Shown here in pieces: positions 23,818 to 64,000 of a stretch of 64,000 nt of DNA. This DNA comes from Octopus vulgaris. Lineage: Eukaryota. Both the position numbers and the translations under genes were made by a program. Where the stretch lies: NCBI GenBank assembly GCA_951406725.2, contig OX597828.1:4650001-4714000 (forward strand). The letters are read 5' to 3'. Position 1 is the stretch's first letter; each line of letters opens with the position of its first letter. Below the pieces are notes generated by a model that saw only the letters and a list, made by a program, of their open reading frames with translations, was not told the origin of the DNA and made no database searches.

Positions 23818-23947
23818 TTATTTACTTGTTTCAGTCATTTGACAGTGGCCATGCTGAAGCACCGACTTTAGTCGAGGAAATCGACCCTAGGACTTATTCT
23901 TTGTAAGCCTAGTACTTATTCTATCAATCTCTTTTGCCGAACCGCTA
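23818..23947 (-). mobile_element. Family A SINE 3' part
   Basis: Reverse complement of 22055-22190. Confidence 0.8.
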
Positions 23948-24099
23948 ATATATATAAACACTTTCTCACCTTCTCGAGCGTTAAACTAATAAACCTGTTT
24001 GTTATTTGTGATTTATACAAATAGTCTTTTGTGATATATATACACACACAAATGTATGTACATATATATTTGTGTGCGAGTCTTTGCGTTCACGCATGT

Positions 24100-24966: not shown

Positions 24967-25185
24967 AGGGAGAGGGAGAGGGAGAGGGAGAGGGAGATAG
25001 AGATAAGGAATATACATATATATATATATATACATATGTACTGTGTATATATATATATATATATCACAATCAAGGAACGGCCATAATAGGCCATTCACCC
25101 ACTAGAAATAACAGCCAAAGCTTCAACCGCAAAATAACATTAATTCCGCAAACCAGGAGAAAGTTAAAAAAGCATTTACCCTGTA

Positions 25186-25292
25186 ATTTCTTATACGATG
25201 CACCGTTTCATCTCTTGTTTAATGGTAAACTAACCTGATTAAATTAAATCAAGCCAATCTTCCATAGGCCCTTAGATTCGTCAGTAAGAAAT
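25186..25292 (-). ncRNA. Type I hammerhead ribozyme, copy 1
   Basis: Reverse complement of 26184-26290. Confidence 0.8.
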
Positions 25293-25674
25293 AGCCAGAT
25301 CGGAACAGATATTTTCACGAGGCACTTCTGTCCCTGCCTCGGCAATATCTGACCTAAAATTTTCAAATCATCGCACTCGCGCCAAATTTATCGGCAGCAA
25401 ATAAATATAAGCCGCCGATTCCATTACGGAATCAACCAGAAAATTCATAATTAATCAATATAGGGTGGCAAAAAAAATTTTGTAGAATTTTTTGCCACCA
25501 GCGGCCTAGTGGGAAAAAATTAAATAGTCATAGACCATTTATAAGTTCAACATCACAATCAAGGAACGGCCATAATAGGCCATTCACCCACTAGAAATAA
25601 CAGCCAAAGCTTCAACCGCAAAATAACATTAATTCCGCAAACCAGGAGAAAATTAAAAAAACATTTACCCTGTA

Positions 25675-25781
25675 ATTTCTTATACGATGCACCGTTTCAT
25701 CTCTTGTTTAATGGTAAACTAACCTGATTAAATTAAATCAAGCCAATCTTCCATAGGCCCTTAGATTCGTCAGTAAGAAAT
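25675..25781 (-). ncRNA. Type I hammerhead ribozyme, copy 2
   Basis: Reverse complement of 26184-26290. Confidence 0.8.
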
Positions 25782-26183
25782 AGCCAGATCGGAACAGATA
25801 TTTTCACGAGGCACTTCTGTTTAATTTTCTCCTGGTTTGCGGAATTAATGTTATTTTGCGGTTGAAGCTTTGGCTGTTATTTCTAGTGGGTGAATGGCCT
25901 ATTATGGCCGTTTCTTGATTGTGATGTTGAACTTATAAATGGTCTATGACTATTTAATTTTTTCCCACTAGGCCGCTGGTGGCAAAAAATTCTACAAAAT
26001 TTTTTTGCCACCCTATATTGATTAATTATGAATTTTCTGGTTGATTCCGTAATGGAATCGGCGGCTTATATTTATTTGCTGCCGATAAATTTGGCGCGAG
26101 TGCGATGATTTGAAAATTTTAGGTCAGATATTGCCGAGGCAGGGACAGAAGTGCCTCGTGAAAATATCTGTTCCGATCTAGCT

Positions 26184-26290
26184 ATTTCTTACTGACGAAT
26201 CTAAGGGCCTATGGAAGATTGGCTTGATTTAATTTAATCAGGTTAGTTTACCATTAAACAAGAGATGAAACGGTGCATCGTATAAGAAAT
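26184..26290 (+). ncRNA. Type I hammerhead ribozyme, copy 3, with long stem II insert
   Basis: atttctta-CTGACGA-atct...(~60 nt)...agat-GAAA-cggtgcatc-GTA-taagaaat; 8-bp stem I; predicted cleavage after 26282. Confidence 0.82.
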
Positions 26291-26505
26291 TACAGGGTAA
26301 ATGTTTTTTTAATTTTCTCCTGGTTTGCGGAATTAATGTTATTTTGCGGTTAGCTTTGGCTGTTATTTCTAGTGGGTGAATGGCCTATTATGGCCGTTCC
26401 TTGATTGTGATGTTGAACTTATAAATGGTCTATGACTATTTAATTTTTTCCCACTAGGCCGCTGGTGGCAAAAAATTCTACAAAATTTTTGCCACCCTAT
26501 ATTGA

Positions 26506-26586
<81 letters not shown>

Positions 26587-53839: not shown

Positions 53840-53870
<31 letters not shown>

Positions 53871-53877
<7 letters not shown>

Positions 53878-54076
53878 TCAATATAGGGTGGCAAAAAAAT
53901 TCAGCAGAAATTATTTGCCACCAGCGGCCTAGTGGGAAAAAAGTAAATAGTCAGAGACAGGGTAAATGTTTTTTAAATTTTCTCCTGGTTTACGGAATTA
54001 ATATTGTTTGCGGTTGAAGCCTTGGCTGCTATTTCTAGTGGGTTTAACGGCCTATTATGGCCGTTCCTAAATTTTG

Positions 54077-62113: not shown

Positions 62114-64000
62114 AAAAAAAGGGAAAACTATGCCCGGAGATAAATCTATCAACAAAAAAATACAGACGAATACAGATCTGCTAACCTTAAGAAACTGCGC
62201 TACGAACAATGTTTACGTGCAGAGACTCCTAAACTGACAGATCCGTCTCTTAATGTAAGAGTCGAAGCTCGTCATGCTTCAATGTCAACAGAACAACCTA
62301 CAATCCGCGATGGTCGCCGAGCGAACTACAAAAGACCACGTACTCGAAAATTGAACCAAAGTCTGATTGAAAAATCAGCTGCTGGATCAAATCTTCCCGA
62401 CACACAGGAGCTGAACGTACCCCACAACTGGAATATTCCAACAGATGGCCATCCATGCTCGTCACCAAACACTCAAAAGAAAAAGAAGGAAAAATGGACT
62501 AGGAAGATAATAAAGAAGTTCTTGCGGCCTTCTACCATGCCATATATTTCCCCACAGATAAATCGAACACTATACAAACCTACATAAACTGGAGATAGAA
62601 ACACCATGAAGCAAGACCCTACATAGACAGTAACAAACTTGCCAACGTCAGAAGAAACATTATAAAAAATAAATTACTGACTGAAGTAGAGATAGATCAA
62701 ATTAGACAAGCAGTAACGGATAAAATGAACGAAGCTGCAGCTAAAGAAGATAATACAGAGGAAACAATTATAGACCAGCCCAGGGCTGATACAAACGAAG
62801 TAAGGATTGAAAGAGTTAGTATAAGTGATAGGCAAAGTGAAATACACCCTGAACCAATCATAAATACTAAGACAGATGAACATCAAATCGATGAAGAGAG
62901 TCACACAAATATTGACCCAACAGAACTACATGAGCTAAAAAGTCAAATCATGATTGAATGACTGAAAATTAAAGAAACCAGTATGAATGAACGTGATACA
63001 CTCCCTAAAATCCGCAACTCTGACCAAAACATGAAAATAATTGGTAAAACCCGGCTTGCACTTAAGGATATAATTTCAGCTAATGATGTTGATATCACAT
63101 ATCTCAACCACCTATACTATGCATCCGCGAAAATCTCAACGATCCTATGTGGTGAAAAGATTAGAAAACGGCAACATTTCCACAAAAAGCCTTCTTGGCA
63201 AGAGCGTATCCAACAACAAATTAAACTATTTAGTTCTGACATTGAATATTTGAAAAACCTTAAGGTTCATAAGACTACCAAACCTACAAAAACCCCAAAA
63301 CTAATGAAAAAATATAATATGAAAATTATACTTGATATTGATGCCACCATAGAAACCATCAAGCAAAAGGTACCTGCTAAAGCTGCCCGCATGGCGAGGT
63401 ATGAACAGCGTGCTAGATTCTTCAAGGACAACAACATGTTCAAAAATAACCCCAAAAAGTTTTACAGTAAGATAGGAAAAACACCACTTACTGTAAAGTC
63501 TGTACCATCAAAGAAGAAGTGCAGGCATTTTGGAATAAAATTCGGACAGAAGAAAAAACACACAGCGAAAAGCCCCCCTGGATTGATAGAGTATCTAAAG
63601 AACTGGACTCCTTAGAAGAGCAAAAGCGGGAGGGTGTCAAGGTAGAAGATATAAGATCTGCTCTCAGGAGTTCAAGCAAATGATAATACAGAGGAAAGGA
63701 TAAAATTCCTAACTTCTGGTTGAATGCCTTCCCAGAGAGCCATGAACTGCTAACAGAACTTTAGAATGATGTTTTGCAACACCCTAGTAGGATGCCTCCT
63801 TGGCTAGTTAATGGGTTAACATTCCTGCTTCCAAAAAGTGAAGAAGCAAATGAACCAAAAAACTATAGACCCATAACTTGCTTAACAACTATGTATAAAA
63901 CACTAACATCTGTCCTGACGGAATATACCTATAGTTTTTTGACAGACAGCAGCATACTCCCTAATGAACAGAAAGGATGTAAACGTGGATCCTACGGTTG
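62114..64000 (+). mobile_element. Dong/R4-clade non-LTR retrotransposon, disrupted ORF, runs off the window
   Basis: PSWQERI, FKNNPKKFY, DKIPNFW, NYRPITCLTTMYKTLT, LPNEQKGCKRGSYG; 5' end abuts (TAA)n. Confidence 0.85.

Follow-up and report, generated by a model that had tools for sequence, protein, structure and literature searches.

A young hammerhead retrozyme family of Octopus vulgaris with the probable footprint of Penelope-like elements on its own ends

We describe a family of 489-nt tandem units in Octopus vulgaris that, on sequence grounds, is a young non-LTR retrozyme family with predicted self-cleavage. Hundreds of its young copies bear the footprint of a Penelope-like element (PLE) reaction on their own ends. 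Retrozymes as a class are already known; the PLE footprint on the ends of this family is unusually clear. The analysis started from a window of 64,000 nt (assembly GCA_951406725.2, contig OX597828.1, positions 4,650,001 to 4,714,000), where one insertion, at 25063..26513, is probably a dispersed retrozyme copy placed in trans by the endonuclease and reverse transcriptase of a PLE.

This insertion consists of two hammerhead-sense arms on opposite strands, set head to head and meeting, as read from the assembly, at an inversion junction at 25820. Self-BLAST and a repeat search gave 758 nt for the left arm (25063..25820, minus strand) and 694 nt for the right arm (25820..26513, plus strand), i.e. 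1.55 and 1.42 units, in agreement with the counts of about 1.55 and 1.4 in an earlier note on this DNA; the unit length claimed there holds as well, copies being spaced 489/486 nt apart at 97-99% identity. Unit positions are counted here from the predicted cut site. The RNA 3' end of the left arm, at 25063, is a 'short' end, 131 nt past the cut site, and its inner, 5'-truncated end, on the side of 25820, falls at unit position 352. The right arm starts at unit position 26 and has its RNA 3' end, a 'long' end at position 236, at 26513. The stretch between the two kinds of end, which we call the tail, measures about 105 nt (102 nt in the window copy, 26412..26513, plus strand) and contains two hairpins. 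TA tracts adjoin both outer ends, as the earlier note had placed them: a TA-rich tract at 25010..25064 and (TA)35 at 26511..26580, which constitute the target and in which a target duplication is unreadable.

Three complete type I hammerheads are present, at 26184..26290 on the plus strand (stem I 26184-26191/26283-26290, core 26192-26198) and at 25675..25781 and 25186..25292 on the minus strand. They have the intact 8-bp stem I, CUGACGA, GAAA and GUA described before, and their predicted cuts follow 26282 (the position named earlier), 25683 and 25194, respectively. In the left arm only, two cut sites lie one unit (489 nt) apart, and the sole cut-to-cut monomer of the locus is 25194..25682 (minus strand, 489 nt). 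No noteworthy open reading frame of at least 40 aa was found, consistent with the claim that the locus is non-coding. The family is represented a second time in the window by an older and short inverted copy (53870..54076, 88-91% alike) between TA tracts, with one long end and the other end near the short site. The window also contains a SINE-like repeat (23825-23950), which recurs in many flanks of the loci examined, and a 217-aa open frame (62962-63612, plus strand) resembling, by eye, a fragment of a LINE-type retroelement.

Next, we examined how the family is spread over the genome assembly (2.8 Gb, 227 contigs). A 28-nt half of the hammerhead has 687 exact matches, and unit matches on many chromosome-size contigs indicate a dispersed family. 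Tandem arrays reach 14 units, the longest stop-free frame in such an array being 58 aa; the unit is non-coding and shows no evident LTR features. Its size lies outside the 170-400 given in PMC7229834 and inside the 51-972 bp of 10.64898/2026.07.22.740005 (these and the other papers cited are represented here by parts of their text). The retrozyme-type reading proposed earlier is thus supported by tandem type I hammerheads, conserved structure, absence of coding capacity and dispersal. A sister retrozyme family, older, of about 490 nt and 67% alike, yielded 2456 first-look candidates (L237:1190-1822 and L251-L280 were inspected) and displays the same two ends and inversions. For the 489-nt family, 100 loci were examined: 40 scored out of 1105 candidates, 39 picked by hammerhead only (drawn from C1 and a portion of C2) and a further 21, of which 20 were chosen by an end and one by a hammerhead variant. 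Counts exclude arms shorter than 45 nt, homopolymer columns and end columns; haplotype counts exclude L077, L087, L107, L116 and L123, and end-pair counts for the sister family and for PLEs exclude the duplicates L213, L137, L142 and L273. Variants called locus-private are private within the 100 sampled loci.

In each hammerhead of the window, stem II measures 68 nt and stem III is short and closed by a palindromic loop. Rfam returned no hammerhead at gathering score, nor among 31 rows up to E=10, and the long stem II probably explains the miss. Other hammerhead elements lie in the flanks of L168, L173, L058, L093, L113, L162, L220, L230 and L241; because many of these have a stem II of 40-70 nt, Rfam likely misses many hammerheads in the O. 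vulgaris genome. A survey of about 290-320 units showed hardly any variation at the core positions, whereas N7, which is free to vary, is C, G, T or A in 133, 80, 47 and 32 units, respectively; the cut triplet of these units reads GUA or GUC. Comparison with the sister family revealed that both partners are replaced in 6 of 13 pairs, with swaps in stems I, II and III, and that 95% of cells are paired versus 37-44% in slid controls; this set represents essentially two lineages with few independent events, and the structure was derived from the same sequences. Near-invariance of the core beside a free N7, together with the paired changes, argues for selection on the hammerhead. Searching for hammerhead variants with a pattern that allowed different stem III pairs gave 0 matches; the pattern was too tight, the sister family differing in stem I.

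The 489-nt monomer folds better than its shuffles (z -4.3 linear, -5.1 circular), and the antisense strand behaves similarly. Its unconstrained fold is devoid of the catalytic core, the catalytic fold being 2.1 kcal/mol less stable. Words which we take to be A-box-like and B-box-like occur at unit positions 298-311 and 376-385, the latter not being preserved in the sister family. ARAGORN found 0 tRNA in the unit and no tRNA-like head appeared among the Rfam rows, so identity as a tRNA-derived SINE was dropped, though decayed Pol III boxes might be present. The same was done with identity as an autonomous PLE, there being no ORF with reverse transcriptase plus GIY-YIG.

Outer RNA 3' ends of the arms fall at two sites, at position 131 (short) or about 236 (long), 105 nt apart. 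In the 39 hammerhead-only loci 61 of 69 arms end at one of them, each of the 61 being followed by TA, and TA likewise follows all 170 arms that end at the two sites in the 100 loci. Exact genome-wide matches number 434 for the short end joined to TA and 713 for the long end joined to TA, while controls gave 0. The earlier note had spoken of permuted copies. With the outer ends fixed in this way, start-point permutation was rejected; it is only the inner 5' ends that are scattered, spreading evenly over the unit. At 46 of 75 inversion junctions, overlaps of 1-9 nt were detected.

Nor is inversion incidental, as it had been treated. It is the commonest form of insertion and obeys strict pairing of a short with a long end. 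The hammerhead-only loci contain 26 inverted pairs and the 100 loci contain 75: 68 short/long, one short/short, no long/long and six with a non-standard end. Thus, where both ends lie at fixed sites, 68 of 69 inverted insertions have one of each. No tail-to-tail pair occurs among the 75. The sister family follows the same rule (10/10), and so do autonomous PLEs: short/long pairs make up 10 of 13 in a Hydra-type PLE, the other three having a non-standard short end, and 3 of 3 in a Neptune-like PLE, where a fourth was seen as well; the one inverted locus of another PLE family is paired by eye. What has been loosely described as a one-sided tail becomes a near-strict rule, valid in the retrozyme, its sister family and autonomous PLEs. 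Seven single arms (L047, L061, L068, L075, L096, L097, L102) have their 5' end at 222-239, near the long site, and their inserts amount to approximately a whole number of units, or to one unit minus the tail.

Divergence between the two arms of a locus is 0.55%, compared with 3.77% between loci and 0.57% within an arm. Of 61 insertions, 50 carry the same diagnostic haplotype on both arms, a match seen in 4.9% of arm pairs drawn at random, and in the other 11 the arms disagree at 1-3 diagnostic columns. Both arms are, as these haplotypes indicate, the product of one insertion event.

The circular or multimeric template suggested in the earlier note survives in part: haplotype uniformity favours a circle and some insertions come from multi-unit RNA, while the permuted copies once adduced for it have to be given up. 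Of 180 arms in our sample, in which loci with a hammerhead are over-represented, 156 read through a cut site, and not one of the 180 inner ends coincides with such a site; the template would therefore be a circle or an uncut multimer. Six arms start 5-10 nt past the cut site. Arrays are internally uniform, with 38 haplotypes among 75 loci; of 333 cases of an allele common to at least three loci, 275 show it fixed, and fixation throughout both arms was also found for 16 rare variants. Because haplotypes are uniform, shared alleles fixed and rare variants fixed in both arms, passage through a monomer bottleneck is suggested. Unit-specific variants common to the two arms were found in five insertions, where chance alone would give about 0.4. 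These five, of which L041 is possibly a fold-back, were therefore not copied from pure monomer circles, and L053 requires at least three different units in its template. In 12 of 25 instances a variant reappears two units away, against 6.4 in shuffles (P=0.012, from 16 events in 7 loci that are not mutually independent), a hint of dimer circles or of slippage by two units. Alternating (period-2) variant patterns are visible within the arrays L044, L047, L055, L123 and L033. All these patterns were read from an assembly of unstated polishing, and they might also be due to that polishing, to master arrays that are young or homogenised, or to jumping from one cut monomer to another as template.

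Judging from the variants, we lean slightly towards a circle as the usual template. Its most serious competitor, which we regard as rather unlikely, employs the same PLE machinery on a template that is always an uncut linear multimer from young or homogenised arrays, the hammerhead being a passenger and circles by-products. The cross-arm variants in L053, L095, L055 and L099 indeed need a multi-unit template, L053 does not fit even a dimer circle, and in the accessible text of PMC11167929 the PLE of Anolis does without hammerhead cleavage, uncut RNA being its main substrate in vitro. However, had the source arrays been of the same age as their daughters, some 24-40 unit-specific variants should be shared between arms (an estimate from a singleton rate of 0.22% per nt over 10.8-17.7 kb of matched arm sequence), and about five were seen. 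A linear multimer also cannot spread the mutation of one unit over a whole array, yet the 38 haplotypes are uniform.

As to how the two arms arise, we hold with good confidence that there were two priming events on RNA of one origin. A quite different route, proposed in PMC3846280 for inverted PLE ends from palindromes at their junctions, is fold-back, in which the first cDNA primes itself and is copied into the second arm. Near-perfect palindromic junctions at L041 and L100 speak for it, and it may hold for a few loci. As a general route it fails, because 21 of 68 insertions, including that in the window, are not nestable either way, the length of one arm does not predict that of the other (rho -0.02, n=68), and the inner ends agree in position about as often as chance predicts, with 2 insertions within 5 nt where 1.8 are expected and 6 within 12 nt where 3.5 are expected (P=0.14). 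Nor would it explain why the second arm ends at a fixed position. We consider fold-back very unlikely and exclude it as the general cause of inversions. In three of four readable cases, one of the three maybe a fold-back, the short site lies one unit upstream of the long site; this offset is only a lead.

Even less probable is the birth of a satellite, discussed in 10.64898/2026.07.22.740005, by which singly inserted monomers would expand through unequal crossing-over and be inverted by later rearrangement. In some arrays neighbouring units do have variants in common, at 6 of 25 carrier distances, but this lies below the shuffled expectation of 9.2, and both arms are multi-unit, have fixed short and long ends and are equally young within and between. 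That the structure in the window is a mis-assembly of a high-copy repeat is scarcely credible: PLE structures are known to trouble assemblies (PMC8557442) and the junction at 25820 is known from the assembly alone, but the same grammar is found at 68 loci with differing junctions and locus-specific haplotypes common to both arms, and again in four other families.

We propose that two priming events would come about as follows. Arrays may be transcribed on the hammerhead-sense strand, for which there is a weak hint. The hammerhead likely cuts this RNA to 489-nt monomers, often ligated to circles and sometimes dimers, with part of the RNA staying multimeric, as both the variant patterns and other retrozymes lead us to infer. 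A PLE protein, probably a dimer by analogy with the Anolis PLE, would bind the structured region at about positions 90-236 and nick both (TA)n strands. Each nicked strand would then prime reverse transcription, one at 131 and the other at about 236, almost never at the same site; the end pattern is observed and the priming deduced from it. Finally, the two cDNAs would run independently through cut sites, up to many units, stop at random and be joined head to head, often via the overlaps of 1-9 nt; here lengths and junctions are observed and the joining is deduced. The complete scheme, a PLE dimer on a ribozyme-made circle priming both (TA)n strands, one site per subunit, in two independent rolling reactions, is offered tentatively. 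If true, this single mechanism explains the tails, inversions and tandems of PLEs, and the insertions testify directly, at the level of the genome, that transposition of animal retrozymes is templated by circles, both monomers and some dimers.

Published work on PLEs bears on several of these steps. In the available text of PMC11167929, the PLE tail obtained in vitro equals the span between two internal start sites of reverse transcription, both target strands are cut and extended, and the protein is predicted to be a dimer. Either strand used either start site there, which counts against one site per strand.

A hint of the sense RNA comes from sequencing runs, 14 of 20 of which were guessed to be RNA. 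In contigs of four of them (X1, X3, X5, X14), plus-strand T>C versus A>G changes over 25063-26513 number 14/4, 16/4, 15/6 and 14/5 places, with depth mostly on the minus-sense arm. One loose end of X14, at 25694, shows, by eye, C in place of T at about 8 of 11 sites and reaches into the hammerhead core. Among 316 genomic units at most one such T>C change was found in the hammerhead core region. A motif from the loose end neighbouring that of X14 is absent from the genome assembly. These changes weakly hint at A-to-I hyper-editing of sense RNA; the species of the runs may differ from that of the assembly. The contigs are uninformative on strand, ends, level and circles, and a circle junction is non-diagnostic in the presence of tandem DNA.

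Mobilisation by Penelope-like elements, already suspected in the earlier note, is made likely by fixed paired ends in loci picked by their hammerhead and by matching ends in autonomous PLEs, and we have little doubt about PLE-type mobilisation as such. Candidate PLEs numbered 6136 from a GIY-YIG scan and 11820 from a Hydra-type protein search and comprise at least three families. The Neptune-like PLE (L161-L179) is young, with a frame of 781 aa for reverse transcriptase and GIY-YIG, copies about 98% alike in (TA)n, ends at about +72 and +110, a tail of roughly 40 nt and a minimal hammerhead; an apparent second ORF lies upstream. The Hydra-clade PLE (L189, L211-L230), also young, has an open frame of 981 aa with the motifs RWK, DKT, CxCX5C, CxxC and CxH, a tail of about 115 nt, paired ends and a hammerhead with long stem II. 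An asparagine-rich insert precedes its endonuclease, and its tail far exceeds the 30-40 nt given for PLEs in the published texts at hand.

Architecturally, the Hydra-clade PLE is the best match to the retrozyme. Its copies L189 and L211 share with it the (TA)n target, paired ends, a palindromic stem III and a stem II of about 60 nt; they differ in a short end about 38 nt past the cut, rather than 131, and in having no detectable sequence similarity to the unit. This clade as the partner is possible, and we name it with reserve. In the 120 loci selected for PLEs (L131-L250), a small part of the candidates, neither blastn nor local alignment against shuffles identified a PLE with sequence in common with the unit. 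Weak matches in L248 and L249 (E=0.005) lie in a separate hairpin element past a TA tract and were discarded, and the 67% relative in L237 was rejected as a pLTR, being an insertion of its own.

The case for PLE-driven movement of animal retrozymes, off circles, has so far been built on common hammerheads, co-occurrence and similarity to pLTRs, the mechanism being called open in the accessible parts of PMC7229834 and 10.64898/2026.07.22.740005. The full-text literature searched, with Repbase, Dfam, subscription papers and supplements outside its scope, held in its accessible parts no account of the 489-nt family, of retrozyme tails or of PLE twin priming; the family may be catalogued in Repbase or Dfam, or in supplements of PMC7229834, PMC8557442 or 10.64898/2026.07.22.740005. 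With a template of 489 nt, a pair of predicted start sites and a candidate enzyme that is intact, the family could serve as a test system for twin priming and rolling-circle copying.

Twin priming of L1 also produces head-to-head inversions, through two priming events on opposite target strands; its second site is variable and its arms do not overlap. In the retrozyme, by contrast, both sites are fixed, the arms overlap and their lengths are independent. Animal non-LTR retrozymes, as presented in the texts available (PMC7229834; 10.64898/2026.07.22.740005), are likewise dispersed non-coding tandems with one type I hammerhead per unit that co-exist with PLEs. RNA circles and cleavage have been shown for published retrozymes, whereas the O. 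vulgaris family is known from its sequence alone; in 10.64898/2026.07.22.740005, eight of nine Xenopus retrozymes failed to cleave in vitro. The 68-nt stem II sets the family apart, and its fixed paired ends, tail, TA targeting and head-to-head arms are undescribed in those parts of the published accounts. Chlamys elements such as MRC1 (PMC8557442) are similar in being non-autonomous parasites of PLEs with multicopy head-to-tail insertions, but their 3' end resembles that of the partner and most have no canonical hammerhead, according to the portion of that paper at hand.

The closest resemblance is to PLE insertions themselves. Those described in the accessible text of PMC3846280 and PMC8557442 have an inverted 5'-truncated copy, a tail of 30-40 bp on one end and (TA)n targets. 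Together with PMC11167929, these sources document the same head-to-head arms, 5' truncation, one-end tail, AT-rich or (TA)n targets and two fixed RNA start sites downstream of the hammerhead as we found in the retrozyme. Unlike PLEs, the retrozyme has no ORF, and its tail of 105 nt is about three times the reported length. Finally, the published PLE tail appears there as optional or often one-sided, whereas in the retrozyme the pairing of ends has been counted, at 68 of 69, and fold-back has been tested and fails.
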